Shown here: in pieces, positions 521 through 55,440 of the stretch
Numbering within the stretch: the first letter of the stretch is position 1
Layout of the letters: each line of letters begins with the position of its first letter
NCBI GenBank assembly: GCA_963747695.1
Contig: CAVVFV010000003.1
Coordinates: 17,296-81,295, forward strand
Origin: Candidatus Falkowbacteria bacterium
GTDB taxonomy: Bacteria; Patescibacteriota; Patescibacteriia; Patescibacteriales; WJLG01
Direction: 5' to 3'
DNA: 64,000 nucleotides
Program-made: the position numbers and the translations under genes
Notes under the pieces: model-generated
What the model was told of the DNA's origin: nothing
Databases searched by the model: none
What the model saw: only the letters and a program-made list of their open reading frames with translations

Positions 521-2536
521 TTATATATCGAGGTTCTTGACTTTCTTGGCGTGCGTCTGAATAAAGTGTTTCCGGGGCGCGACATCATCGCCCATCAACA
601 TATCGAAAATTTCATCGGCCGATTGCGCATCGTCCAAAGTCACCTGTTTCAAGATGCGCCGAGCCGGGTCCATCGTCGTTTCCCAAAGCTGCTCCGGATT
701 CATTTCACCTAAACCTTTATAACGCTGAATGCGCAGATTAGCCGCCTTTTTGGATTTATCATCATCGGCCTCTTCGGCGGAAAGATCATCACCCTCGGCA
801 ATCTCCTCGATCTCTTCAACTTTTCCGCCCATTTTTTTAATGATGCTGATTTTTTCTTCGTCCGAATAAGCGTATTCGATTTGCGCTCCCTTTTTGATCT
901 GATACAAAGGCGGTTGGGCGATATACATATGGCCATTGGTGATTAACGGTTCAAAATGGCGATAGAACAAGGTTAGCAACAGAGTGCGGATGTGAGCGCC
1001 GTCGACATCAGCATCAGTCATGATAATAATGCGATGATAGCGCAATCTGGTCAGATCGAATTGTTCGTCGATGTTCGTGCCCAAAGCGATGACTAAATTC
1101 TTTATTTCATTGTTAGCGAGCATTTTATCCAATCTGGCCCGCTCGACGTTAAGGATCTTGCCGCGCAAGGGGAGAATCGCCTGGAATTTCCGGTCGCGGC
1201 CTTGTTTGGCCGAGCCGCCGGCGGAATCGCCCTCGACGATGTATAATTCGCACTCTTCCGGACTGTTACTGGAACAATCAGCCAGCTTACCCGGCAAGGT
1301 CATTCCCTCTAAAGCACCTTTGCGCAAAATCGAAGCGCGAGCGGTACGTGCCGCCATTCGAGCCATGGCCGACAGAACACATTTACCGATGATCGCTTCC
1401 GCATCTTTCGGATGTTCCTCGAGGAAATCGGCAAAAGCCGTGCCAAAAACCTGCTCGACCGCAGTTTTAATTTCTGCATTGCCCAGCTTCGCTTTGGTCT
1501 GGCCTTCAAATTGCGGATCTTTCAATTTTACGCTGATGATCGCCGTCAAACCTTCTCGGACATCGTCACCGGTCAGATTCTCGTCTTTTTCTTTGATCAA
1601 ATTATGATTGCGGGCATAGGCATTGAGCGTTCTGGTCAAAGCAGTCTTAAAACCGATGATATGAGTACCGCCCTCGGGATTATAAATATTGTTGGCAAAA
1701 GGCAGCACTGATTCGTTGAATTCGTCATTGTATTGCAAAGCAATTTCCACCCGCGAACCTTCAAATTCTTTATCCACATAAAAAATATTTTCATGCTTGA
1801 CCGTATTATTACGATTCAAAGCCTTGGTATAAGCCTTGATGCCGCCTTCAAAATGGAATTTATATTTCTTTTCCTGACCCTTCGTTCTTTTATCATTAAC
1901 CTCGATGGTGATCCCTTTGGTCAGATAGGCTTGCTGGCGCAGGCGAGTCAGAACTTTTTCCCAATCAAATTCCAATTCGGTAAAGATAGTCGGATCCGGT
2001 TTAAAAGTGATAATCGTGCCGGTCCCCACGGCCTTACCGATCGGTTTGGCTGCAGATTTGGGCTTGCCCCGATGATATTCCTGAACCCAGGCTTTGCCAT
2101 CGAGATGGACCTCTGCTTTCATGTATTCGCTCAAGGCATTGACGACCGAAACGCCGACGCCGTGCAAACCGCCCGAAACTTTATAGCCGCCGTCACCGAA
2201 TTTTCCGCCTGCATGTAATTTCGTTAAAACTGTTTCCAGCGCTGAAACTCCGGTAGCTTTATGTTTACCGACGGGAATGCCGCGGCCATTGTCGATAACT
2301 TCGACCATTCCGTCGGCAAGAAGCGAAACCGTGATGTAATTGCAAAATCCAGCCATTGCTTCATCAATGCTGTTATCGACCACTTCCCAAATCAAATGAT
2401 GCAAGCCGGTAGCCGAGGTCGATCCAATATACATTCCCGGCCGCTTGCGTACCGGTTCAAGCCCTTCAAGGACGGTGATCGAGCTGGCGTCATAAGTCGA
2501 TTCTTTTTTCTTCTTTTCCAGTTCTTTATTAGTCAT
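521..2536 (-). CDS. gyrB: DNA gyrase subunit B
   Basis: 671-aa ORF. N-terminal GHKL ATPase motifs ([33 protein letters not shown]), Toprim ([15 protein letters not shown]) and C-terminal [19 protein letters not shown]. Confidence 0.97.
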
Positions 2537-2539
2537 ACT

Positions 2540-2580
2540 TTAGGTACTTAGTTGATTAGGTAATTAGGTGCTTAGTCCTG
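2540..2580. repeat. 8-nt periodic word array (TAGGTACT TAGTTGAT TAGGTAAT TAGGTGCT TAGTCCTG) abutting the gyrB start
   Basis: Read directly. Shares the 12-mer gttgattaggta (2551-2562) with 53601-53612. Confidence 0.7.
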
Positions 2581-2820
2581 ATGATTATTTACCTAATATT
2601 AAACTAAAAAATGATAATTATTTTAAATGAAAAAATCGATTTTATTAATCAATTTATCTAGTATAATTATAGCAAAATATCAGAAGACAGGCAAGCGATT
2701 TTTTGTTGATAAATCAGTGATTTTCACTTTACAAAATCTTTAAAAAATGTCGATGAATAATCAGCTCTGCATTTTTGATTTTTATTTTATTATGCTAAAA
2801 TGAAAACGTAATGAAAAATT

Positions 2821-3726
2821 ATGCCCGATAAGAAAAACGACATCAACTTGAACCGTTACGAGACCGACGTCGCCGGCGTCTCGATGAAAACGCTGGAAGC
2901 CGGTTTGTGGTGGACGAAAAATCGTGCGGCCCTGAAGATCGCTTTGATTGTCTTTTTATTACTGGTATCAATAGCCAGCTGGAGCTATACGATTTACGGC
3001 TTCGGTTATTACCTTTTCGTGGGGATGAACGCCGACGAACAGATGGCCAGGGCGATGGCGGAAATGACCACGGTCAATCATAGCTATCTCGTCCAGATCG
3101 CGCCGAAAAATTTGATTTTGTCACCGGCCGGCTTTTTGCCTAACGGAAACAACTATGATCTCTATCTGCAGATTACCAATCCCAATTCCCGGTGGTGGGC
3201 AACGTTCGATTATTGTTTTGCCCTGCCGGATGGGGAAAAATCGTGCGGTAACGATTTCATGCTGCCGGACAATAATAAATATCTCCTGTCTTTGAACGAT
3301 CCATTCAAAGCAAATCCGAATAATTTGAATTTTTCCCTGACTAATCTGGTTTGGAATAAGATCGATAATCATCAAATCAGCGACTGGAGCAGCTATCTGG
3401 CCAATCGTTTGAATATCGCCATAGCCAACCAGCTTTTCACGCCGGCGGAAAACAATACCGTCTCGGAGAAGGTTCCGCTAAACAGCCTGACTTTCACAAT
3501 TACTGATAACAGCGCCTATAGTTATTTTTCCGTTCCGTTGACGATCATCTTGACCAATGGCAATCGTCTCGTCTATATTGATCGATACACCCTCGACAGC
3601 CTGACCTCCCATCAATCACGCCCGGTGGAAATAACCTGGCCCGGAACGATGGGCGGCGTAACCGGTATCGATATTACGCCGGATTTGAATATTTTAGACC
3701 AAAGCATCTACCAGCAACCGAAATGA
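2821..3726 (+). CDS. Hypothetical membrane-anchored protein
   Basis: 301-aa ORF with one N-terminal hydrophobic helix (ALKIALIVFLLLVSIASWSYTIYGFGYYLFV). Its stop overlaps the next gene's start (ATGA at 3723-3726). Confidence 0.6.
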   Translation: MPDKKNDINLNRYETDVAGVSMKTLEAGLWWTKNRAALKIALIVFLLLVSIASWSYTIYGFGYYLFVGMNADEQMARAMAEMTTVNHSYLVQIAPKNLILSPAGFLPNGNNYDLYLQITNPNSRWWATFDYCFALPDGEKSCGNDFMLPDNNKYLLSLNDPFKANPNNLNFSLTNLVWNKIDNHQISDWSSYLANRLNIAIANQLFTPAENNTVSEKVPLNSLTFTITDNSAYSYFSVPLTIILTNGNRLVYIDRYTLDSLTSHQSRPVEITWPGTMGGVTGIDITPDLNILDQSIYQQPK

Positions 3727-6780: not shown

Positions 6781-7698
6781 TTACGACTCAATTACGAATA
6801 AACGATCATAGCCGCCCAAATCCTTGAGAAAATCTTTGCGGCAGGCGGGAAAATTATCCCTGATCAGCTTGTCCATGGCGGCCTTTTGCGATTCATCGAT
6901 CTCGCCATAGATGATGATATTTCTTTTATGGAGGCCGAAGCGTTTATTGATCTGCTGGAACAAGCGGCGATAATGATCAAGACCGTCAACACCGGACAAT
7001 AGAGCCCTTTGCGGTTCATGGCGCAGGTCCGGCGATCGTTTGATCTGCGCGGCGGTCAGATAAGGCAGATTAGCGGTGATGATCGTCGGCTGTTTGAAAA
7101 TATTTTTATCAATAACATTAAGCAAATTGCTGTACAAAAAATTTATCCGTCCGCCAACCCCATTTAGCCGGGCATTTTGCCGCGCCACTCCGAGCGCCGC
7201 GCGCGAAATATCCAAACCCCAATATTTAATCTGATGGCCGGATAGATTTTTGGCTAACGAAATAATCACGCAGCCGGACCCCGTGCCCAGATCGATGATG
7301 TTCTTGATCGCGATCTTCTTTTCCCAGGTACTGATGATTCCCCGGCGCCCATGCCTGAAACGCCTTAAGACTTCCTCAACCATCAGTTCGGTCTCGGGGC
7401 GGGGGATTAGCACGTTTTTATTTACCTTGAAGTCCAGTCCATAGAATCCCTGATGTCCGGTCAGATAGGCTAGAGGAACGCCTTTGGTTCGATTGCCGAT
7501 CAGCCGTTTAAATCTGGCCGCTTGATAGAAATTAAGATTTTTTTCCGGGTAAGTGAATAAATATTCCCGGCTTTTACCCAAGATAAGCGACAAAATTTCT
7601 TCGGTTTCGAGATCAGACTGATCGATTTTCATTTTTTTAATTTGCTCTGAACCAAAAATCAGAGCCGATCGGATGTTCATAGAATTTGACAAAAGCAT
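6781..7698 (-). CDS. prmC: Release-factor glutamine N5-methyltransferase (PrmC/HemK)
   Basis: 305-aa ORF. SAM motif IIDLGTGSGCVIISLA; catalytic tetrad reads NLPY (ITANLPYL) instead of canonical NPPY. It is separated from prfA by about 700 bp. Confidence 0.82.
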   Translation of the reverse strand: MLLSNSMNIRSALIFGSEQIKKMKIDQSDLETEEILSLILGKSREYLFTYPEKNLNFYQAARFKRLIGNRTKGVPLAYLTGHQGFYGLDFKVNKNVLIPRPETELMVEEVLRRFRHGRRGIISTWEKKIAIKNIIDLGTGSGCVIISLAKNLSGHQIKYWGLDISRAALGVARQNARLNGVGGRINFLYSNLLNVIDKNIFKQPTIITANLPYLTAAQIKRSPDLRHEPQRALLSGVDGLDHYRRLFQQINKRFGLHKRNIIIYGEIDESQKAAMDKLIRDNFPACRKDFLKDLGGYDRLFVIES

Positions 7699-8027
7699 TG
7701 ACTAATAATTCCTAATTTGTTATTGTTTAATTATAGAGCTGAGTCTGAATCAGGGGCTGAGGAATCACCAGCTATGCACATCCGCCGGAAAGCCATTGCA
7801 TAGACCTAAACAGATTAGGCGAACCAGCTTTAGCACATTCAGACATCCATCGTTAACATTTGGCAACAAGGAGGAAGAATGTCGCCCCAGCTCATTACAC
7901 GGGAAATTTCAGCCGTTGACCATGTTTCTGAAATCTGTACTATTTTCGGGAAAGGAGGTGATACCATCTCGGTTGCGGGATAGTATAAACCGTTACCCGC
8001 CGAAATAGTATCAGAACTTAACGGCAA
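7699..8027. ncRNA. Helix-dense non-coding segment (strand and class unresolved)
   Basis: No credible ORF. Nested complementary pairs read directly: CTATGCA 7772-7778 / TGCATAG 7797-7803; atttcag...ctgaaat near 7906-7934; TACTATTTTCGG...CCGAAATAGTA enclosing GCGGG...CCCGC near 7949-8021. Confidence 0.35.
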
Positions 8028-8397
8028 AATAAGAATTATTATCGATCGGGCGCCACGGCAAATTTGAATCCGGTCGATTTTCCCGGACTCAAATCAGCGC
8101 AGGCATCCGCTAATTGCGCGTACGATTTGTTGCTGATTGGCGCACTCAGGCCAGCGCCCAATAGCCGGAACACCATCGGCGCGGCCAAAAACAGTGAGGT
8201 AAATGCACTATAGCATTTCCACTGTGTTACCCGGGAAATTCTCGCCCTGCGAGCTCTTTCCCGTTTTTTTATACGCAATCCGCTGGAGCCAAAACCGTTT
8301 CGGTCGCAGGCGAGTGGCGGATCGTGAAATCCGGCCGGACGACGGGATAACAAAAGTTGGGAAAGCCGCCAGTCACCGATCAATTGAATTCAGCGAG
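8028..8397 (-). ncRNA. Candidate large structured RNA, copy 1 (paralog of 49943-50555)
   Basis: GC-rich and ORF-poor with many helices, e.g. ATTTGAATCCGG 8062-8073 / CCGGACTCAAAT 8083-8094 (11/12 pairs). Four sequence blocks are collinear with the 49943-50586 element. Strand is inferred from that copy. Confidence 0.4.
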
Positions 8398-9450
8398 TTA
8401 AGCTTTATTTTTCAAAGCTTTTTCCGCCTGCTTGAGGGCGGCGATAATATCTTCCAGATTGTTTTCCATCGTTGACGTGATATTGCTCCAATTCTGTTTG
8501 ATCCGGTGGTCGGTTATCCGGTCTTGGGGAAAATTATAAGTTCTGATCTTTTCGCTGCGGTCGCCGGTACCGATCTGTTTTTTTCGAGCCGCATCCTCGC
8601 GGGACCTTTTTTCCTCTTCCATCTTCGCCGCCAATCGCGAACGCAAGATCATCATCGCCTTATCCTTATTCTGATGCTGGGATTTCTCATCCTGGCATTG
8701 CACCACGACATTGGTGGGCAAATGAGTGATTCGGATAGCCGAAGAAGTCTTATTGACTTTCTGGCCGCCCGGGCCTGACGAGCAATACGTATCGATGCGC
8801 AAATCTTTCGGGTCGATCACCAAATCGACATCTTCGACTTCCGGAACGACCGCGACCGTAGCGGTGGAAGTATGAACGCGGCCCTGCTTCTCGGTCTCCG
8901 GCACGCGCTGAACGCGATGAGTCCCGCCTTCGAATTTCAGATTGCCAAAAACATCCTTGCCTTTGACCCCGAAAACGATTTCTTTGAAACCGCCTAATTC
9001 GTTACGGCTCGATTCAAATACTTCCACTTTCCAGCCCTGCCGTTCGGCAAAACGCGAGTACATCCGGAAAAGTTCGCCCGCAAACAAAGCCGACTCATCG
9101 CCGCCGGCTCCGGCGCGGATCTCGATAATCACGTCTTTTTTGTCGTTCGGATCGGCCGGGTGGAGCTCTTCATCGATCTCGCTTTTAAGCTTCGCCACCT
9201 GCATTTCCGCTCCAGCCATTTCCGCTTGCGCCATCTCCTTCATCTCCGGGTCTTTTTCCTGGGCCGCCAGATCGCGGCTTTGCACAATGACCTTTTCATT
9301 ATTTTCCAATTCTAAAATCTTCGCCAGTAACTCCTTCAAGTTGGCGTGTTTTTTCCCGAGCGAAGCCAATTTGGCCGGATCGGCCGCAATCGCCGGATCC
9401 ATCAGCTGCGCTTCGAGATCATTAAACTGTTGTTTGATATCTTCGTACAT
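8398..9450 (-). CDS. prfA: Peptide chain release factor 1
   Basis: 350-aa ORF with SGPGGQKVNKTSSAIRITHLPT (GGQ motif). The codon-recognition tripeptide region reads RVQRVPETEKQGRVHTS (PET rather than PAT/PVT). Confidence 0.94.
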   Translation of the reverse strand: MYEDIKQQFNDLEAQLMDPAIAADPAKLASLGKKHANLKELLAKILELENNEKVIVQSRDLAAQEKDPEMKEMAQAEMAGAEMQVAKLKSEIDEELHPADPNDKKDVIIEIRAGAGGDESALFAGELFRMYSRFAERQGWKVEVFESSRNELGGFKEIVFGVKGKDVFGNLKFEGGTHRVQRVPETEKQGRVHTSTATVAVVPEVEDVDLVIDPKDLRIDTYCSSGPGGQKVNKTSSAIRITHLPTNVVVQCQDEKSQHQNKDKAMMILRSRLAAKMEEEKRSREDAARKKQIGTGDRSEKIRTYNFPQDRITDHRIKQNWSNITSTMENNLEDIIAALKQAEKALKNKA

Positions 9451-9536: not shown

Positions 9537-9625
9537 TTTAACAATATTTGTTTAATATAAAACGGCTACGCTGTTCTGTATAGTATGATTATACCACACA
9601 AAAAAACATAGCCGTAATAAGTCGG

Positions 9626-9916
9626 TTATTCCTTTTCAACCCGCTTGGCCGCCCGTTTGGCCGCTTTGGCGGTAAATTTATCTTTTTTGCTGACGTGTTT
9701 CCCGGCGATTTTATTGGACGCTTCCAATTTAGCCTGAAATTTTTCGACGCGGCGGGCAGTATCCACCAACTTCTGTTTACCGGTATAAAAAGGGTGGCAA
9801 GCTGAGCATAGGTCAACTCTCAATTCCGGCTTAGTCGAACCAGTGGTAAAGGTGTTGCCGCAAGCGCAAGTCACCTTGGCATCGGCATAATATTTGGGAT
9901 GAATTTCCTTTTTCAT
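9626..9916 (-). CDS. rpmE: Ribosomal protein L31 (Cys-containing, Zn-type)
   Basis: 96-aa ORF: [10 protein letters not shown]...VTCACGNTF...[15 protein letters not shown]. Confidence 0.93.
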
Positions 9917-13800: not shown

Positions 13801-13910
13801 CATCCGAACCTGCGAAATATCCGAATACAACGAACATTTTTTTCGAACATCCTGTTCGTTTTGTAGAGTTTGTAGTATTCGGATAAAATTCGTAGTATTC
13901 GTATTAATAT
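13801..13910. repeat. CGAATA/GTAGTATTCG word-repeat region (diverged member of the dispersed intergenic repeat family)
   Basis: Contains ccgaatacaacgaaca...tgttcgttttgtag...gtagtattcgg...cgtagtattcgtatt. Related words occur at 16803-16925, 43521-43617 and 48281-48365. Confidence 0.55.
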
Positions 13911-16802: not shown

Positions 16803-16925
16803 TAATATAATGCGAATACTACAAATTTTACGCGAATACCGCGAACAGATTAACAAATTATCTTGAAATAATTCGATAAATAGTTCGTAGTATTCGCGAA
16901 CAATTCCCCGTATTCGCCTCATGCT
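16803..16925 (+). repeat. Dispersed ~90-bp intergenic repeat, copy A (upstream of lysS)
   Basis: atgcgaatactacaaattttacgcgaatac...aataattcgataaatagttcgtagtattcgc aligns at roughly 85% identity by eye with 43524-43612. Contains internal inverted arms gcgaatactac / gtagtattcgc. Confidence 0.8.
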
Positions 16926-16988: not shown

Positions 16989-18506
16989 ATGGGAGAGGAA
17001 AGATTTTTTGTTTATATGTCAAACGAAAAACAAGACAACCTGGTTCACGCGCCGAATGAAAGAGAGGACCGCCTAAAAAAACTCGCGGATCTCAAACAAT
17101 CCGGCATGAATCCCTATCCGGACAAATCGGGCCGGACTCATTCGATTCTCGATGCCCTGGCGGGTTTTGATGACTTTTTGGCGGCGAAAGAAAATCTGGT
17201 TCTTGCCGGAAGGGTGATGATCAAAAGAGAATTCGGCAATCTCACATTTATCGAGCTTTACGACGGCACGGGAAAAATCCAATTGGCTTTATCCAAAAAA
17301 GATCTCGGCGTCGATGAATTCAAAAAATTCGGCAAGCTCATCGATATGGGCGATTTCATCGAAGCTGCCGGCACTTGTTTCGTCACGCATAAAGGAGAAA
17401 AAAGCCTGATGGTATCGGGCTGGAAAATTATCACCAAGGCAATCCTGCCTTTGCCGGAAAAATGGCATGGCTTGGAAAATGAAGATGAAAGATTTCGTTT
17501 AAGATACCTGGATTTATTGACCAATCAGGAAGTCCATAATTTGTTCATAAAAAAAGCGCAATTTTGGGATACTGTCCGCCGCTTCATGCAACAGAAGGGA
17601 TTCCTGGAAGTCGAAACTCCGACTTTGGAAAACACTACCGGCGGCGCCGAAGCCGAACCTTTTCGCACTCACCACAATGATTTTAACTTGGATGTTTATT
17701 TGAGAATTTCGGTGGGCGAACTCTGGCAAAAAAGATTAATGGCCGGCGGTTTTGACAAAACTTTCGAGATCGGCCGAGTTTTCCGCAATGAAGGATCGTC
17801 AGTCGATCATGTTCAGGAATTCACCAATATGGAATTTTATTGGGCGTACGCGAATTATGAAGACGGGATGAACTTAGTCCAGGAACTCTATCAAAAAATC
17901 GCCCAGGATGTTTTTGGTACGACTAAATTTATCAGTAAAAATTATGAATACGACTTGAAAGGGGAGTGGCCGAGAATTGATTATCGTTCGAAAATCAAGG
18001 ATGAGACAGGCATCGATGTTTTATCGGCCGATGCCGGAGAGATCAAGAATAAATTATCCGAATTGAATGTCGATTATGAGGGCGATAGCAAGGAACGCCT
18101 AGTCGATACTCTTTGGAAGTTTTGCCGAAAAAAAATAGCCGGACCGGCGTTCTTGATCAATCACCCGAAATTAGTTTCGCCGCTGGCCAAGTCGCTGCCG
18201 GACAATCCCGAATTGACCGAACGCTTCCAAGTAATTATTGCCGGATCCGAGATCGGTAACGGTTATACCGAATTGAATGACCCCCTGGAACAGCGAGCGC
18301 GCTTCGAGGAGCAGCAGAAATTGATCGATCGCGGCGACAAGGAAGCGATGATGCCGGACTGGGAATTCGTCGAAATGCTCGAACACGGTATGCCGCCGAC
18401 CTGCGGCTTCGGTTTTGGCGAACGCCTCTTTTCCATCCTGGTCGACAAACCGATCCGCGAATGCCAGCTGTTTCCGTTGATGAAGCCCAAGTCGCGTAAC
18501 GCATAA
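16989..18506 (+). CDS. lysS: Lysyl-tRNA synthetase, class II
   Basis: 505-aa ORF. OB-fold N-domain; class II motifs FLEVETPTLE, FEIGRVFRNEG, and GMPPTCGFGFGERL at the C-terminus. The true start may be M10. Confidence 0.95.
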   Translation: MGEERFFVYMSNEKQDNLVHAPNEREDRLKKLADLKQSGMNPYPDKSGRTHSILDALAGFDDFLAAKENLVLAGRVMIKREFGNLTFIELYDGTGKIQLALSKKDLGVDEFKKFGKLIDMGDFIEAAGTCFVTHKGEKSLMVSGWKIITKAILPLPEKWHGLENEDERFRLRYLDLLTNQEVHNLFIKKAQFWDTVRRFMQQKGFLEVETPTLENTTGGAEAEPFRTHHNDFNLDVYLRISVGELWQKRLMAGGFDKTFEIGRVFRNEGSSVDHVQEFTNMEFYWAYANYEDGMNLVQELYQKIAQDVFGTTKFISKNYEYDLKGEWPRIDYRSKIKDETGIDVLSADAGEIKNKLSELNVDYEGDSKERLVDTLWKFCRKKIAGPAFLINHPKLVSPLAKSLPDNPELTERFQVIIAGSEIGNGYTELNDPLEQRARFEEQQKLIDRGDKEAMMPDWEFVEMLEHGMPPTCGFGFGERLFSILVDKPIRECQLFPLMKPKSRNA

Positions 18507-18521
18507 CTCATAACGCGTAAC

Positions 18522-18944
18522 ATGTCGTCTATGAAGATAATAATTTGCGGCAGCATGGCTTTTTCCCGAGAAATGGCTGAATTGGGGAAAAAATTGCAAA
18601 CTAGCGGTCACGAAATTATTTTGCCGCGCAACTGCAATAATTATGCGGAAAGCAAACTGCAAGCGGAAAATACCAACGAATCTGTTCGGAACAAAATTGA
18701 ACATGATTTAATCCGCGATTATTTCCAGAAAATAAAAAATTGTGATGGAGTTTTAATCGCTAATTTCGATAAAAACGGCATTAAAAATTATATCGGCGGT
18801 AATTCATTTCTGGAAATTGGCTTTGCCCATGCGTTGAATAAAAAAGTTTTTTTATTTAATGATATTCCTGACATCGGCTACCAGGACGAAATAATTGCAA
18901 TGAAACCAATTATTCTAAATGGCGATTTAAAAAAAATTATCTAA
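18522..18944 (+). CDS. Nucleoside 2-deoxyribosyltransferase-like small Rossmann protein
   Basis: 140-aa ORF: KIIICGSMAF... and GGNSFLEIGFAHALNKKVFLF resemble the NDT-like D/GxxxE-G-A pattern. Assignment is tentative. Confidence 0.5.
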   Translation: MSSMKIIICGSMAFSREMAELGKKLQTSGHEIILPRNCNNYAESKLQAENTNESVRNKIEHDLIRDYFQKIKNCDGVLIANFDKNGIKNYIGGNSFLEIGFAHALNKKVFLFNDIPDIGYQDEIIAMKPIILNGDLKKII

Positions 18945-18986
18945 AAAATATTTTTCATTTCTAATTTTTAACTTTTAATTGAAGTT

Positions 18987-27838: not shown

Positions 27839-27895
27839 AAATAAACAATGTAAAATTCAAAATGAAAAATTAAAAATATTTTTCATTTTTAACTT

Positions 27896-29200
27896 TTAAT
27901 TTTTAATTGTTTTTAAAATTTCCACTGCTTTATCAAGCTGCGGGTCCTGGCCGGCATTTACCGCCGCTTCGGTGGTCGTCGCGATGATATCCGGCGTGAT
28001 TCCCTGGTCGTTGATCGAATAACCTTTGGGAGTATACCACTTGGCCACGGTAATCTTGACCATCGAGCCGTCGCTCAAAGTTTCCAACGATTGCACCGAA
28101 CCTTTACCGTAAGTTTTTTCACCGACGATCTTGCCCAGGCCGTAATCTTTGAGCGCTCCGGCGAAAATCTCCGAGGCTGAAGCCGAACCGCCGTCAACCA
28201 AAACCACGGTCGGAAAATTCTGCAAATGCTGGATGCCGGAAGAATTGTACTGATTATTTTCGGTCGGGTCAGTCGATTTTTCGCTTACCACCAGCTTACC
28301 GCTCGGCACCCATTCCGAAGCCAGACTGACGGCCGAATCCAAAAAGCCGCCGGGATTATTGCGCAGATCGATGATCAATCCTTTGGGCTTATCTTTCAAG
28401 ACTTCTTGGACGGCGCTTTGAAAAAGTCCGACCGTATCTTCATTGAAATTCGAAACAGTGATGACGAAAATCTTATCGGGCCGGAATTCCGTTTTCACGC
28501 TCTTCACATAAATCACGTCGCGAACGATCGTGATATCTTTGGTTTCCTTGAACCCCTGGCGGAAAATGGTTAAAGTGACTTTGGTTCCCTTGGGACCGCG
28601 GATATTTTCCACCGCCTGATCGATTGTCATATTTAAAGTGGAGGAGCCATTGATGGCGATGATCGTATCGCCAGCTTTAATCCCGGCTTTTTCCGCCGGC
28701 ATATCCGCCAGCGGAGCGATTATGGTGATCGCGTCGTTGCGCAAACCGACTTCGGCGCCGATGCCTTCAAAAGTTCCCGAGAGATCATTATTGAAATCCT
28801 GCGAATCCTTCGGATCGAAAAATACGGTATAAGGATCACCCAGCGAAGCGGCCAGACCGCGCAAAGAACCGTAAAACATTTCCTTTTCATTGAGTTTGTC
28901 CTTGTCGACGTACTTGGATTCCAAAGCGTCCCAAACTTCCCAATATAGATTAAAATTAATATCCTGCGACAAGCGGCCTCCGGTATCTTGCGAGTATTTG
29001 CCGGTGACTTTGCCCAGATAAACCGATTCTTTGTTGGCGAGAGCGGCAACTAATTGATTCTTGCCCGTCACATACATTCCGGCCGCGAATGACAGTAAGA
29101 TCAAAATCACGACCAAAACCACCAGCAACGCCTGGCGCGCCAGATGATGATGATTACTCAAATCCCCTTCGGCTTGCTTCTTCTTAAAAAAATTAAACAT
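27896..29200 (-). CDS. Carboxy-terminal processing peptidase (S41) with PDZ
   Basis: 434-aa ORF with an N-terminal TM; FEGIGAEV...AGIKAGDTIIAING (PDZ); DLRNNPGG, GSASASEIFAGAL, TYGKGSVQ. Confidence 0.92.
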   Translation of the reverse strand: MFNFFKKKQAEGDLSNHHHLARQALLVVLVVILILLSFAAGMYVTGKNQLVAALANKESVYLGKVTGKYSQDTGGRLSQDINFNLYWEVWDALESKYVDKDKLNEKEMFYGSLRGLAASLGDPYTVFFDPKDSQDFNNDLSGTFEGIGAEVGLRNDAITIIAPLADMPAEKAGIKAGDTIIAINGSSTLNMTIDQAVENIRGPKGTKVTLTIFRQGFKETKDITIVRDVIYVKSVKTEFRPDKIFVITVSNFNEDTVGLFQSAVQEVLKDKPKGLIIDLRNNPGGFLDSAVSLASEWVPSGKLVVSEKSTDPTENNQYNSSGIQHLQNFPTVVLVDGGSASASEIFAGALKDYGLGKIVGEKTYGKGSVQSLETLSDGSMVKITVAKWYTPKGYSINDQGITPDIIATTTEAAVNAGQDPQLDKAVEILKTIKN

Positions 29201-43520: not shown

Positions 43521-43617
43521 ATATGATGCGAATACTACAAATTGTACGCGAATACTACAAACAGATTTCACGAATTTAATTTTAATAATTCGATAAATAG
43601 TTCACGGTATTCGCATC
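43521..43617 (+). repeat. Dispersed ~90-bp intergenic repeat, copy B (upstream of secE)
   Basis: atgcgaatactacaaattgtacgcgaatactacaaacagat...aataattcgataaatagttcacggtattcgc is near-identical to 16803-16895. Confidence 0.8.
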
Positions 43618-44487: not shown

Positions 44488-44620
44488 AAAATTAAAATCT
44501 CAAAATATAAAATTATTGAGTCCGCTCCGGCGGACGAAATTCATTTATTTTTCATTTTGACATTTACATTTTAAATTAAATAATGCCCAAGGTACGCTTC
44601 TTACCGCAAGCTTAAAAAAT

Positions 44621-45052: not shown

Positions 45053-45100
45053 TCTATAATTTAATCAATATCTAATATAATTATTGTGGGAGGATTAATA

Positions 45101-45159
45101 ATTACAAATGACAAATTACAAATTATTTGTAATTTCTAATTTTTAATTTGTAATTTTTT
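45101..45159. repeat. 7-nt TTACAAA/TTTGTAA word arrays in inverted arrangement upstream of rplA
   Basis: attacaa atgacaa attacaa att | atttgta atttcta atttttaatttgta, read directly. Confidence 0.7.
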
Positions 45160-45182
45160 CCGTTGCACCACGATCCAAACGT

Positions 45183-48369: not shown

Positions 48370-49365
48370 ATGAATCATCCGGAACAACAATACCTCGATC
48401 TGATGAAAGACATCATAGAGAACGGCACCGACAAGGAGCTTTTTTTTACGCCGGAAGTTTTGGCCGAATATAAGAAGAAGGGCGAGGAACCGCCGTTCAT
48501 CCGCTCGGTCTTCGGTCGGCAGATTCGGTTTGATCTTTCTCAGGGCTTTCCGCTTCTGACGACGAAAAAAGTTTTTGCCCGCGGAATTTTCGAGGAATTG
48601 ATCTGGTTCTTGAGCGGCGACTCCAACATCAAATACTTGGCCGACCATGACGTCCATATCTGGGACGAATGGGCTTGGAAGAAATATCATAAGCATTGCC
48701 TGGCCAACTCCCCTGCCGACGATCTATCTCAGGCGGATTTCATCGCCAAGATAAAATCATTACCGGCCGACGATGAATTTGTTAAAAAATGGGGCGATCT
48801 GATCACTATCTATGGCCGGATGTGGCGGCGCTGGCCGGCTTCGGATGGACGAGAAATCGACCAGCTGGGCTGGGTTATCGAAGGTTTGAAAAGCAAGCCG
48901 TTCCGGAAATCTTACGTGGTCTCCGCCTGGAATCCGGATTTCATCTATGCGATGGCCTCGGAAAAAAACAAGAATGAAGTTCCGCCCTTTTGCCATACTA
49001 CCTATCAATTTGCCGTCACGCACGGCAATCGCCTTAATCTTGGACTTTATCAAAGAAGCGCTGATACTTTTCTGGGCGTGCCATTTAATATCGCCAGCTA
49101 CGCTCTATTATTATTAATGGTGGCTCAAGTTACCGGATTGGAGCCCGGCGAATTCGTCCATACTTTCGGCGATGTCCATCTCTATTCCAACCATTTTGAC
49201 CAAGCCAAGCTGCAGCTTTCCCGCGGTCCGAAACCATTGCCCAAAATAAAATTAAATCCGGCGATCAAAAATATCGACGACTTCAAATACGAGGATATTG
49301 AAATAATCGATTATAATCCCCACCCGGCGATCAAGGCGGAAATCGCCAATATCGGCGGCTTTTAA
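48370..49365 (+). CDS. thyA: Thymidylate synthase (ThyA)
   Basis: 331-aa ORF: FGRQIRFDL, PLLTTKKVF, IWDEW, PFCHTTYQF (catalytic Cys), LYQRSADTFLGVPFNIASYALL. It is longer than typical ThyA because of an internal insert. Confidence 0.95.
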   Translation: MNHPEQQYLDLMKDIIENGTDKELFFTPEVLAEYKKKGEEPPFIRSVFGRQIRFDLSQGFPLLTTKKVFARGIFEELIWFLSGDSNIKYLADHDVHIWDEWAWKKYHKHCLANSPADDLSQADFIAKIKSLPADDEFVKKWGDLITIYGRMWRRWPASDGREIDQLGWVIEGLKSKPFRKSYVVSAWNPDFIYAMASEKNKNEVPPFCHTTYQFAVTHGNRLNLGLYQRSADTFLGVPFNIASYALLLLMVAQVTGLEPGEFVHTFGDVHLYSNHFDQAKLQLSRGPKPLPKIKLNPAIKNIDDFKYEDIEIIDYNPHPAIKAEIANIGGF

Positions 49366-49370
49366 TCAGA

Positions 49371-49430
49371 TAAAAAATAAAAGAGAAAAGAGAAAAAATA
49401 TTTTTTAATTTTTCTTTTTTCTTTTTTAAT
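49371..49430. repeat. Purine/pyrimidine inverted low-complexity repeat (aaaagagaaaagagaaaaaata | ttttttaatttttcttttttctttt)
   Basis: Read directly between thyA and folA. Confidence 0.6.
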
Positions 49431-49437
49431 TGAATAC

Positions 49438-49911
49438 ATGATATCAATGATCTGCGCCGTGGGGCGCAACCGAGAGATCGGTTATCGGAACAAATTGCTT
49501 TGGGACTTGAAGGGCGATATGAAGCATTTTGTCGCAGTGACACGCGGCAAAACGGTCATTATGGGTGAAACGACCTATCATTCGTTATTCATCAAGCCCC
49601 TGCCCGGCCGAAAAAATATTGTTTTGACGTTAAGTAACGATCTAATCGCGCCGGGTTGTGAAATCTCCCACGATTTAAAAGCAATTGCCGAAAAATATCA
49701 GAATTCATCTGAAGAGGTTTTTATTATCGGCGGCGCTTCCATCTACAAACAATTTCTTCCTTATGCCGCCAAATTATATTTGACCTTGGTCGATGATACC
49801 CCGGTTGCCGATACTTATTTTCCTGATTATTCCGAATTTAAAATAATTTCCGAAAGCGAACTCAAAGAAGAAAAAGGAATCAAATTTAAATTCGTCGAAT
49901 TGATAAAATAG
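49438..49911 (+). CDS. folA: Dihydrofolate reductase
   Basis: 157-aa ORF: MISMICAVGRNREIGYRNKLLWDLKGDMKHF...GKTVIMGETTY...IIGGASIY. Confidence 0.88.
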   Translation: MISMICAVGRNREIGYRNKLLWDLKGDMKHFVAVTRGKTVIMGETTYHSLFIKPLPGRKNIVLTLSNDLIAPGCEISHDLKAIAEKYQNSSEEVFIIGGASIYKQFLPYAAKLYLTLVDDTPVADTYFPDYSEFKIISESELKEEKGIKFKFVELIK

Positions 49912-49942
49912 TCGTGGGAACGCAAAATTTTGCGTTCCTACC

Positions 49943-50555
49943 AAAATAAGAAAGGACTGATTCGAGATAAACTCAAATCAGTCCTTACTGGAGGGCCGCC
50001 TTATCGCGGCCCAGACAGAGCAAGCTCGTGGGGAGCTCGCTAGCGGCAAATGGATTCGGGGAAGACGTACACCGGTCTTCACTCCCGCCATGTTGCCGGT
50101 TGCGCGGAAATCGCAATTGTTCGGAGGGCTGTTATGTCTACCTGCTCACAAAACAACGCTATTCCGCATTGATCCGTTCTGGTTCGCTGTGAACGCCGCG
50201 ACGCGTCATATCTTAACGCGCGCGCTGATTGGCCGATACAGCTTCGGCCGAGCGATTGCCGGAACGGATTTTTCTAATAAATTGCCTACCCCGGCAGATG
50301 ACCCGTGAAGATGCTCATGCGCCTCCACGGGATCTGGCCGGTAGTGAGCGGATAATGATGGAGGGTCTTGATAGACCCGCACATCCGCTCGATTCTCCGG
50401 ATACGGACTGTCCGCTCTGTTTCCGCATGCGGAAAGGAGGGCATTCGCTATCCCTTTTACGCTCAATAGCTTTACGCTGGGCGTGCATGATTGCGGGGAA
50501 AGGCAGCGCGTATTCACGAGAGAATCAGACTTTATAAATGTTCAATAGCGAAAAT
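49943..50555 (-). ncRNA. Candidate ~600-nt structured RNA, copy 2 (class unknown)
   Basis: A minus-strand TTGACA-17-TATTAT promoter sits at 50558-50586. A minus-strand intrinsic terminator (AAGGACTGATTTGAG-tttatc-TCGAATCAGTCCTT + tcttatttt) sits at 49943-49986. The interval is GC-rich, without a convincing ORF, and contains many local helices. Confidence 0.45.
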
Positions 50556-50557
50556 AT

Positions 50558-50586
50558 ATAATATCACAAATTAAATTAATTGTCAA
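50558..50586 (-). promoter_or_regulatory. Sigma70-like promoter (TTGACA-17-TATTAT) for the candidate RNA
   Basis: + strand tgtcaa 50581-50586 and ataata 50558-50563, with a 17-nt spacer. Confidence 0.7.
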
Positions 50587-50612
50587 CGGCGTGACAAATC
50601 AAGCAATTATCT

Positions 50613-51170
50613 ATGAAAAATAAGCAAATATTAGCCGTTGTCGGCATGGCCGGTTCTGGCAAAAGCGAAGTGGTAAAATATCTGGCCAAAAAATTAAATT
50701 GGCCGACGGTTTATTTTGGCAGCTTTACTTTTGATTGGATCGAGGATCATCACCTGCCGGTTAACTACGACAACGAAAAAAAAGCCCGCGAGCAGATTCG
50801 CCGAACCGGCGGAATGGGCGCTTATGCCAAATTATCTTTGCCGAAAATTTCCGCCCTGTTGAAAAAAAATAGGGGCGTGATCGTCGAAAGTTTATACAGC
50901 TGGTCGGAATATAAAATCTTAAAAAATAAATACGGCAATAATTTCCAGGTTATTGCGGCGCATGCCTCCCCTGCCGTTCGTTTCAAGAGATTAAAAGCGC
51001 GGACCAATCATCGGCCGATGAAAAATTACACCGAATTCAAAACGCGCGATTATACTGAAATTGAAAATATCGAAAAAGGCGGACCGATCGCGATGGCCGA
51101 TCTGATGATCATCAACGAAGGCAGCCTAAATGACTTGCATAAAAAATTAAATACGATTAAGATAGTTTAA
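50613..51170 (+). CDS. P-loop nucleotide/nucleoside-monophosphate kinase-like protein (CoaE/dNMP-kinase superfamily)
   Basis: 185-aa ORF with a Walker A motif VVGMAGSGKSEV. Its size and layout match small NMP kinases. Substrate unknown. Confidence 0.6.
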   Translation: MKNKQILAVVGMAGSGKSEVVKYLAKKLNWPTVYFGSFTFDWIEDHHLPVNYDNEKKAREQIRRTGGMGAYAKLSLPKISALLKKNRGVIVESLYSWSEYKILKNKYGNNFQVIAAHASPAVRFKRLKARTNHRPMKNYTEFKTRDYTEIENIEKGGPIAMADLMIINEGSLNDLHKKLNTIKIV

Positions 51171-51903: not shown

Positions 51904-52046
51904 TATTATTGCTTGAACCGTCGTTATTATTGAGCGCGTCAATAACGCGATAATCCTTAAATCTTCGCTTGATTTTTACTTTAAAAAGATATAAACTATG
52001 ATTATATTTCTTATTTCTTCTCTCTTAATTTTTAATCGAATTTTTT

Positions 52047-54324: not shown

Positions 54325-54326
54325 CT

Positions 54327-54555
54327 TTTGGCTCCGGCAGAGTCTCCTGAAAGGGACTCGGCCGCAAAGTAACGCTGATCACGTCAGAGTCCTCGCGGCG
54401 AGAGACTCTGACGAGACCAAAAAAACGTTGCGAGATCCCCTCTTGAGAGGGGTGGCTCGCGCCACGCGGACGAGGTGTGTGATGATCAGCAATCGCGTCA
54501 GAGTTCAAATTTTTCCTTATAACAAACATTGAAAAATTACCGTTAAGCCACTAAG
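54327..54555. repeat. Composite inter-ORF repeat module, copy 1
   Basis: ttttggctccggcagagtctcc...gcaaagtaacgctgatcacgtcagagtcc and ttccttataacaaacattgaaaaattaccgttaagc recur at 54949-55185. Contains the long hairpin cgtcagagtcctc-gcggc-gagagactctgacg. Confidence 0.7.
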
Positions 54556-54946: not shown

Positions 54947-54948
54947 TT

Positions 54949-55185
54949 TTGGCTCCGGCAGGGTCTCCTCTTTGAGACTCTGTGGCAAAGCGACGCCGAT
55001 CGCGTCAGAGTCCCAATTTTTTTGTCATTCCGACCGAGCGCGCCTCGCGCGAGCGGAGGAACCGCTTCAAGGTTTTTTTAACTTAATGCGATCCTTCGAC
55101 TCCTGCCGCGGCGGCATTCGCTCAGGATGACAATATAAATTAATTTCCTTATAGCGAGCATTGAAAAATTTCCGTTAAAGCACGA
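54949..55185. repeat. Composite inter-ORF repeat module, copy 2 (with two GTCAT-type REP elements inserted)
   Basis: ttttggctccggcagggtctcc...gcaaagcgacgccgatcgcgtcagagtcc, then REP elements at 55024-55063 and 55090-55131, then ttccttatagcgagcattgaaaaatttccgttaaagc. Confidence 0.7.
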
Positions 55186-55440
55186 AGCGTAGAAGCCGTG
55201 CAAAATTGCGTTGTCCGAAGACGGCGCCTCGCCGGCAAGTATAGCAATTTTGCTAGGCTTCATAGCGGAGTGATAGGAAATTTTTCCTGCGAGCAGTTTT
55301 TTGTGCCACTTTTTCCAAAAAAAGTGGCAAAATAGTAATGTAACCAATAGACCCACCCCGCGTCGCCGAGCTCGGCACCCCTCCCAAGAGGGGAATTAAA
55401 TAAAAAAGGGATTTATCGACGTTGCGACAAATCCCAAATA
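55186..55440. repeat. Cluster of palindromic REP-like hairpins
   Basis: caaaattgc...gcaattttg; tgccacttttt-cc-aaaaaaagtggca; caccccgc...ggcacccctcccaagaggggaatt; gggatttatcgacgttgcgacaaatccc. Confidence 0.6.

Follow-up and report, generated by a model that had tools for sequence, protein, structure and literature searches.

Background

Structured bacterial RNAs longer than 500 nucleotides (nt) are rare, and each of the classes found so far (OLE, GOLLD, ROOL, HEARO and raiA) has become the starting point of biochemical or structural studies. ROOL and GOLLD are large ornate RNAs that often reside in prophages near transfer RNA (tRNA) genes. Together with OLE they represent large accessory RNAs of ribonucleoprotein or RNA-only assemblies (PMC9723947, PMC12286853). 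ROOL and GOLLD form RNA-only homo-oligomers (PMC12286853), and OLE RNA, whose biochemical function is not established, is thought to be a ribonucleoprotein scaffold (PMC9723947, PMC12286853). Here we describe a locus in a 64,000-nt stretch of contig CAVVFV010000003.1 from a Candidatus Falkowbacteria bacterium (positions 17,296 to 81,295), which at its full length is referred to as the window. The minus strand of window positions 49941-50551 most probably constitutes a genuine new gene for a structured non-coding RNA (ncRNA) that stands alone and is ~610 nt long. The RNA belongs to a family that is apparently undescribed and, in the sequences compared, confined to a small clade of Patescibacteria; in Rfam 15 and in literature searches, we found no such RNA described for Patescibacteria or the Candidate Phyla Radiation (CPR).

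A candidate RNA gene between folA and a kinase gene

The RNA interval is bounded by transcription signals of its own and lies between two protein-coding genes on the opposite strand. The elements that delimit it, in window coordinates and with lengths in amino acids (aa) or base pairs (bp), are as follows.

49438-49911, plus strand: folA (dihydrofolate reductase; Pfam DHFR_1, E = 9e-48)
49917..49939, plus strand: separate hairpin GGGAACGCAAAAUUUUGCGUUCC, an inverted repeat directly past the folA stop codon
49941..50551, minus strand: putative ncRNA transcript of ~611 nt, from promoter to end of the U-tract, placed by its sequence signals
49986..49941, minus strand: terminator with a 15-bp stem (49986..49952), a 5-nt loop and then a U-tract, UCUUAUUUUG
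50586..50558, minus strand: sigma-70-type promoter with -35 box TTGACA (50586-50581), 17-nt spacer ending in TG and -10 box TATTAT (50563-50558)
50613-51170, plus strand: gene for a 185-aa AAA_17/AAA_18 P-loop kinase, on the other flank of the RNA interval

The promoter (TTGACA-17-TGnTATTAT) matches the consensus at 11 of 12 positions, has a TG-extended -10 box and would place the start of transcription at ~50551, ~7 nt past that box; its -35 box is 27 nt from the kinase start codon. Two pairs of the terminator stem (helix 10) are altered on both sides among relatives. A first-pass annotation of this DNA had proposed these same minus-strand elements, a TTGACA-17-TATTAT promoter and a strong hairpin followed by a U-run, and both were found. 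The annotation of the flanking gene folA was also correct, as was that of prfA (8398-9450, minus strand) and prmC (6781-7698, minus strand), which border a second region considered below. The separate hairpin at 49917..49939 is probably the folA terminator and lies outside the RNA.

The RNA gene and folA are convergent, whereas the RNA gene and the kinase gene are divergent, and the RNA is therefore the leader of no gene. Its minus-strand terminator is succeeded only by the 3' end of the convergent folA. A riboswitch or other cis-regulatory leader, which would lie ahead of a gene on its own strand, was rejected on this basis. A promoter and a terminator of its own on one strand, outside any 5' untranslated region, argue for an independent gene.

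The composition and predicted folding of the interval are likewise distinctive, and here the earlier impressions of elevated G+C and many local helices were borne out. The G+C content is 0.52-0.57 over 49900-50500, compared with 0.36-0.44 in the flanks and a window mean of ~0.45. In a rough map of open reading frames (ORFs) of at least 110 aa, the RNA interval is the sole gap longer than 250 nt with a G+C content above 0.5; this map took a 114-aa ORF at 8039-8383 as a gene and left the upper prfA-prmC spacer unscored as a gap. The minus-strand RNA has a minimum free energy (MFE) of -255 kcal/mol, with z = -9.1 relative to dinucleotide shuffles. The plus strand folds about equally well, so folding energy alone cannot assign the strand; a strand test based on 24 G-U cells versus 6 A-C cells favours the minus strand as the RNA.

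Homologues and distribution

The loci compared carry kinase homologues that are 71-83% identical, and the named homologues of the kinase come from metagenome-assembled genomes of Patescibacteria or Candidatus Falkowbacteria. Two Logan contigs (L001 and L002) hold a stretch identical to the window. The same RNA was found at the syntenic position in four other Patescibacteria metagenome sequences (L003, L006, L013 and L019), with the order being a folA or GNAT acetyltransferase gene, the RNA and the AAA_17/18 kinase gene. A profile hidden Markov model (HMM; nhmmer) was built from the window, L003 and L006, and these three match it by construction.

L006, 3226-4019: E = 4e-232
L003, 3302-3994: E = 6e-197
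Window, 49933-50612 (the homologous span): E = 6e-184
L013, 3-463: E = 5e-32, cut by the contig end
L019, 88-191: E = 6e-8, only the first ~100 nt (5' end), at a contig end

Conservation across the homologues extends to the promoter, the 5' end, the P4/P5 core, the P7 hairpin and the terminator (helix names are given below). Except in L015, every locus with upstream sequence has a gap of 430-1160 bp that separates the kinase gene from folA or the GNAT gene. All 10 syntenic gaps examined (the window and nine relatives) contain a TTGACA-N17-(TG)-TAnnnT promoter that points away from the kinase and is at a constant distance from its start codon.

More distant searches returned chance matches at most. 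The exact 20-mer of P7 had no match in 185,579 GTDB species genomes and one chance match in JGI metagenome contigs, within a giant ORF of high G+C. A 17-mer had four chance matches in IMG/VR viral contigs, none confirmed by nhmmer, and BLASTN against phage and plasmid records gave no matches. A phage- or plasmid-borne ornate RNA was rejected, as no true match was obtained in any of these three collections.

Conserved helices and compensatory changes

Comparison of the homologues has shown a predicted fold of two domains whose helices are kept by compensatory changes. The 5' domain consists of P3, P4 and P5 around variable arms and the 3' domain of P6 to P9 and the terminator. All elements below are on the minus strand.

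50391..50526: basal helix P3, GAUUCUC..AUACG / CGUAU..GAGAAUC, enclosing the variable arms of the 5' domain (from the MFE fold)
50346..50390: hairpin P4, GAGCGGAU ... CCAUCAUU-AUCCGCUC
50291..50341: hairpin P5, CCGGC ... GCCGG with an inner stem; the junction ACUA (50342-50345) comes before the hairpin
50266..50290: A/U-rich linker between the domains
50174..50267: lineage-specific insertion; L003 lacks it and L006 has a different one
50104..50167: long hairpin P6, GCGGAAUAGCG ... GCGAUUUCCGC
50044..50099: hairpin P7, GGCGGGAGUGAAGACCGGUGUACGUCUUCCCCGAAUCCAUUUGCCG, the most conserved block
50019-50041: hairpin P8
49993-50012: hairpin P9, GGGCCGC..GCGGCCC

For the 3' domain (window 49940-50175, L003 and L006), RNAalifold predicts 76 pairs. 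Standard pairs occupy 96.8% of the cells and 14 of the 76 pairs are compensatory, a result that was reached by 0 of 500 shuffles; control alignments in which the partners were slid by 1-3 columns gave 41-48% pairing and 1-2 compensatory pairs. The long hairpin P6 (helix 2) has 7 of its 19 pairs changed on both sides, and P7 forms a 46-nt hairpin that is nearly invariant across the window, L003 and L006.

The 5' domain was evaluated in L003, L006 and L013. Its P4-P5 core has 43 pairs, of which 7 are compensatory, with 91.3% of cells paired (reached by 2 of 500 shuffles; 0-2 compensatory pairs when slid), and the whole domain has 95 pairs, 18 of them compensatory, with 90.3% paired (2-3 compensatory pairs when shifted). 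In these relatives an equivalent of P3 also shows compensatory changes, and the domain is closed by a long-range helix, P1 (UUUUGAUCA / UGAUCAAAA; UCUUGAU / AUCAAGA in L006), whose 3' strand lies directly upstream of the equivalent of the U-rich linker. P4 is retained in relatives, and its motif CCAUCAU-N-GUCCG is common to the window RNA and to the RNAs of L011 and L017. P5 changes from CCGGC/GCCGG to CCGGU/ACCGG in L003, where the inner stem is swapped for a different pairing sequence. Variable insertions, which the first-pass annotation had suspected, reach ~100 nt and differ between lineages. Taken together, the two domains contain ~170 base pairs for which compensatory changes provide support. 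Three further features sought by eye, a K-turn in P7, an anti-terminator pairing and CCUCC motifs resembling the anti-Shine-Dalgarno sequence, all proved not to be conserved.

Covariance models were built from the P4-P5 core of the relatives (R1) and from P6-P7 (R2) and run over the whole window with filters off. With R1, the window core at 50271-50404 was the second-best match in the window, in a full-length alignment, and with default filters R1 missed the window's own RNA. The top R1 match, at 9548-9641 on the minus strand (15.1 bits, E ~0.03), falls within the AT-rich sequence between rpmE and prfA and seems to reflect a chance resemblance to a terminator-like hairpin. R2 matched the P4-P5 of the window RNA weakly (50290-50393, compared with 50042-50170 for its own module; 13.3 bits). 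The P4-P5 and P6-P7 modules both read ..YCCGC-N4/5-CCGGC.., and a hairpin-junction-hairpin module may have been duplicated inside the RNA.

Genomic neighbourhood and other RNAs at the locus

The folA/thyA neighbourhood is a deoxythymidine monophosphate (dTMP) synthesis cluster, because thyA lies upstream of folA and in relatives the same cluster includes genes for deoxycytidine monophosphate (dCMP) deaminase and deoxycytidine triphosphate (dCTP) deaminase. Further neighbours of the RNA locus are genes for a small membrane protein and gatB. The closest solved relatives of the kinase are archaeal AdkA-like (UPF0200) proteins.

Several of the other loci contain RNAs of a different kind in the equivalent place.

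L008:3576-4000, L011:3235-4000, L014:2500-3000 and L017:~2450-3000: type B RNAs, 360-485 nt, with the same conserved promoter
L003:2842-3300 and L014:2108-2500, strand opposite the kinase: type C RNA, ~350-440 nt, structured-looking

Type B RNAs resemble the window RNA in the distance of the promoter from the kinase and in a P3/P4/P5 layout, that is, a long basal helix, a GGAC...GUCC hairpin and a second hairpin; the copy in L014 also has a P9-like hairpin and a similar terminator. However, they show no similarity to the window RNA at the level of BLASTN or nhmmer, and their 3' domain is different or far shorter and is without P6/P7. It is shared motifs only that hint at a relationship between types A and B. 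A protein scan of GTDB genomes anchored on the kinase yielded one locus, L017, which has a type B RNA. Type C follows immediately downstream of the first RNA, with a TTGACA promoter of its own; the copies are 75-76% identical and have no Rfam match. In L018, the AT-rich gap at 2298-3000 (39% G+C) contains 3-4 promoter-like TTGACA sites on the strand opposite the kinase, each followed by a short hairpin-rich stretch that is unlike types A, B and C.

The RNA type differs between genomes whose kinases are 71-79% identical. In our reading the locus is a nest of RNA genes that evolve fast, and we give an even chance to the proposal that the window RNA is the founder of a new class whose large RNAs (0.36-0.75 kb) comprise several domains and are confined to one lineage of Patescibacteria. 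The members of this class would form a nest of RNA genes in the dTMP cluster, with near-identical promoters, up to 2-3 RNAs (types A, B and C) and domains swapped or duplicated between types. The suggestion of module swapping comes from the window RNA itself, which combines a type-B-like P4 with the type-A 3' domain, and from the resemblance of P4-P5 to P6-P7.

Weighing of alternative explanations

Certain points weigh against the interpretation of the interval as a new RNA gene. The transcript and its ends are deduced from sequence signals alone. The homologues are 4-5 distinct, related sequences and 3-4 were compared for compensatory substitutions, the alignments were plain MAFFT output adjusted in part by eye, and the sequences that served to predict the structures also served to test them. 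The covariation statistics are therefore indicative: their direction is clear, and their exact numbers are below R-scape grade. The 5' domain of the window RNA aligns poorly to its relatives, with R1 giving it 13.6 bits (E ~0.09). Finally, L015 (2543-3579) is without the RNA gene and its folA overlaps the kinase gene by 4 nt. Because this close relative manages without it, the window RNA is, by this comparison, dispensable or lineage-specific, and the RNA locus would have been inserted into an ancestral operon or else lost in L015.

One alternative is a decayed or unrecognised protein-coding gene. The statement of the first-pass annotation that the region has no protein-like ORF has to be qualified, as stop-free ORFs of 103 aa (minus strand) and 102 aa (plus strand) exist; in L003 and L014, gene callers also annotated small ORFs in the corresponding intervals. 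Neither window ORF has a Pfam match, a search of 1.84 billion representative proteins gave no homologue of the 103-aa ORF, and no gene is called in the RNA interval of the identical contig L001. Conservation is also independent of frame and strand: translated similarity between homologues occurs in all frames of either strand and passes from one frame to another inside a block, with no consistent reading frame, the best-conserved block carries 1-nt indels, and the substitutions are compensatory for base pairing. A coding origin is thus hardly credible. A housekeeping RNA (RNase P RNA, transfer-messenger RNA (tmRNA), signal recognition particle (SRP) RNA or 6S RNA) that has diverged past recognition by its model would account for the strong consensus promoter, the high structure and the stand-alone gene, and none of these RNAs was detected in the window. 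However, the window is a fraction of the genome and such an absence means little, and the models for these RNAs gave no match to short stretches even at E <= 10. By eye, the interval has no tag reading frame or tRNA-like end and lacks the conserved strands of the RNase P helix P4 (GGAAAGUCC... / ...ACAGAAnCCGGCUUA); RNase P RNA was rejected on these grounds, as was tmRNA, with ARAGORN finding no tRNA or tmRNA in the window and Rfam no tmRNA. The change of RNA type between genomes with such similar kinases and the absence from L015 amount to a turnover unlike that of housekeeping RNAs, and we regard this origin as very improbable. More generally, no Rfam 15 family reached its gathering score in either the window or five related loci, and in E-value mode the region, the prfA-prmC spacer, seven related loci, the L003 gap and P6-P9 alone produced low-scoring noise only. 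The ftsZ-DE family was rejected at 30.9 bits against a threshold of 72, the match being merely to two terminal hairpins, and no other family (OLE, ROOL, GOLLD, HEARO, raiA, 6S, SRP, group I/II introns) scored near its gathering threshold. With relatives, compensatory changes and no Rfam family, the earlier description of a large structured RNA that matches no familiar class was upheld. A third possibility is that the element acts in cis on the dTMP cluster, by insulating or terminating folA, by competing with the kinase promoter or by antisense read-through on folA and thyA. In all relatives that have the RNA, it occupies a fixed place, with folA (or the GNAT gene) on one side and the kinase gene on the other, which would suit such a role, as would the short distance of the -35 box from the kinase start codon and the back-to-back hairpins at the folA end. 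Nevertheless, the relatives are close and synteny may be simple inheritance, the strong terminator and the second hairpin part the RNA from folA with no antisense overlap, no conserved alternative (anti-terminator) pairing was seen, and the conserved base pairs are far beyond the need of an insulator. We therefore consider a cis-acting element unlikely.

The first-pass annotation had also proposed that the spacer between prfA and prmC (8028-8397) is a paralogous second copy, which would make the RNA a multi-copy family in this genome. The shared words on which this was based are real, with the same order and orientation: 11 nt at 49942/8025, 11 nt at 49971/8087, 10 nt at 50224/8132 and 8 nt at 50258/8164. 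Their collinear chain scores in the top 0.2-1.3% of 1234 window segments, the spacer looks non-coding with modest structure (z = -3.3), and the sequence at its 5' end, UUCAAUUGAUCGG, is similar to the family's 5' box and can pair with CCGAUCGAUAAUAAUUC ~330 nt downstream in the manner of P1. On the other hand, 3-16 other segments do as well as or better than this chain, and by our calculation a two-block match of 9 + 8 nt with flexible gaps is expected ~1 time by chance in a window-wide comparison, so that the four blocks exceed nothing that chance would yield. BLASTN with word size 7 gave no alignment to 8020-8400 at E <= 10, BLASTN linked the spacer to none of 15 related RNAs, and the family profile HMM found nothing there at E <= 1. 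The spacer was not listed by R1 and R2 with filters off, a test of low power in which R1 gives the window's own core 13.6 bits, and its Smith-Waterman score against the RNA is ordinary, being equalled by 34% of window segments. The positions of the blocks are equally unhelpful to the proposal. The first two are the U-tract and stem of the terminator, where the word CUGAUUUGAG has a different pairing partner in the spacer. The third lies within the lineage-specific insertion, which L003 lacks and for which L006 has unrelated sequence; the supposed conservation of its pairing comes down to a pair of GC hairpins, unrelated to each other, that stand between short words common to both places. The fourth involves P4, which cannot form in the spacer as the 5' partner strand is lacking. 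The pattern GCTGATTGG-N10-40-GCCGGAAC matches these two places only and, having been derived post hoc from them, has no weight. The claim of two paralogous copies is not supported and should be dropped; we see little prospect that the spacer is a second copy. The spacer, an odd non-coding stretch, is a matter apart from the RNA gene.

The spacer itself (7699-8397) is ~700 nt long, with no convincing ORF on the operon strand and no Rfam match, and its first ~370 nt could be closed by GAAUUCAAUUGAUCGG / CCGAUCGAUAAUAAUUC. At 7879-7983 on the plus strand, opposite to prfA and prmC, is a 34-aa ORF (MSPQLITREISAVDHVSEICTIFGKGGDTISVAG) with AAGGAGG 4 nt before the ATG; the minus-strand reading of the same positions, GGUAUCACCUCCUUUC, resembles the 3' end of 16S rRNA.

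Other repeats in the window

Three further repeat groups were observed. Positions 54326-54555 and 54947-55187 form a tandem duplication with a period of ~621 nt and blocks that are 81-84% identical, spanning a 125-aa ORF and the non-coding stretch that follows it. AT-rich, partly palindromic intergenic repeats (TTTTTCATTTTTAACTTTTAATTTTTAATTG) occur at no fewer than eight sites, one of which is between thyA and folA:

18913-18986
27840-27914
44546-44583
45094-45161
49363-49437
52008-52043
others

Blocks of a GCGAATACTAC-like repeat at 16805-16922, 43521-43614 and 13868-13904 consist of direct copies (89% and 79% identical) and inverted arms (83-86% complementary).

Significance and comparison with known large RNAs

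CPR organisms have tiny genomes, in which a consensus promoter followed by 600 nt of structured, non-coding and well-conserved sequence probably does not lie idle. Because of the strong promoter and dense structure, the new RNA could be expected to be abundant, stable and trans-acting. Its role might be that of a scaffold, or of a platform to which a partner (protein or RNA) binds, with the nearly invariant P7 hairpin as the contact site and the peripheral arms free to vary. We offer this mechanism tentatively and with less than even expectation: because nothing indicates a partner protein, which also tells against our interpretation, the scaffold role is guessed from what is known of OLE, ROOL and GOLLD. 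At this locus RNA types replace one another unusually fast among close relatives, which could aid the study of module exchange in large RNAs, with the practical limit that the RNA is carried by only a handful of metagenomic sequences.

Among the described classes, the raiA motif and HEARO/omega RNA are, like the window RNA, structured bacterial ncRNAs with their own transcription signals. Neither gives a covariance-model match, raiA is ~200 nt long, and HEARO accompanies an IscB nuclease gene, whereas none is found beside the window RNA, with its flanks of thyA, folA, kinase, small membrane protein and gatB genes. ROOL and GOLLD (~580-800 nt) resemble it in being large, multi-domain and accessory with a patchy distribution; unlike them, the window RNA has no covariance-model match to these families, no tRNA genes in the window and no true viral, phage or plasmid match. 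OLE RNA (RF01071, ~600 nt, Bacillota) belongs to a different phylum and likewise gives no covariance-model match, but resembles the window RNA in size, in its stand-alone gene and in the combination of many helices with highly conserved stretches. Relative to OLE, the window RNA has a far narrower distribution, changes faster and has folA and the kinase gene as its neighbours.

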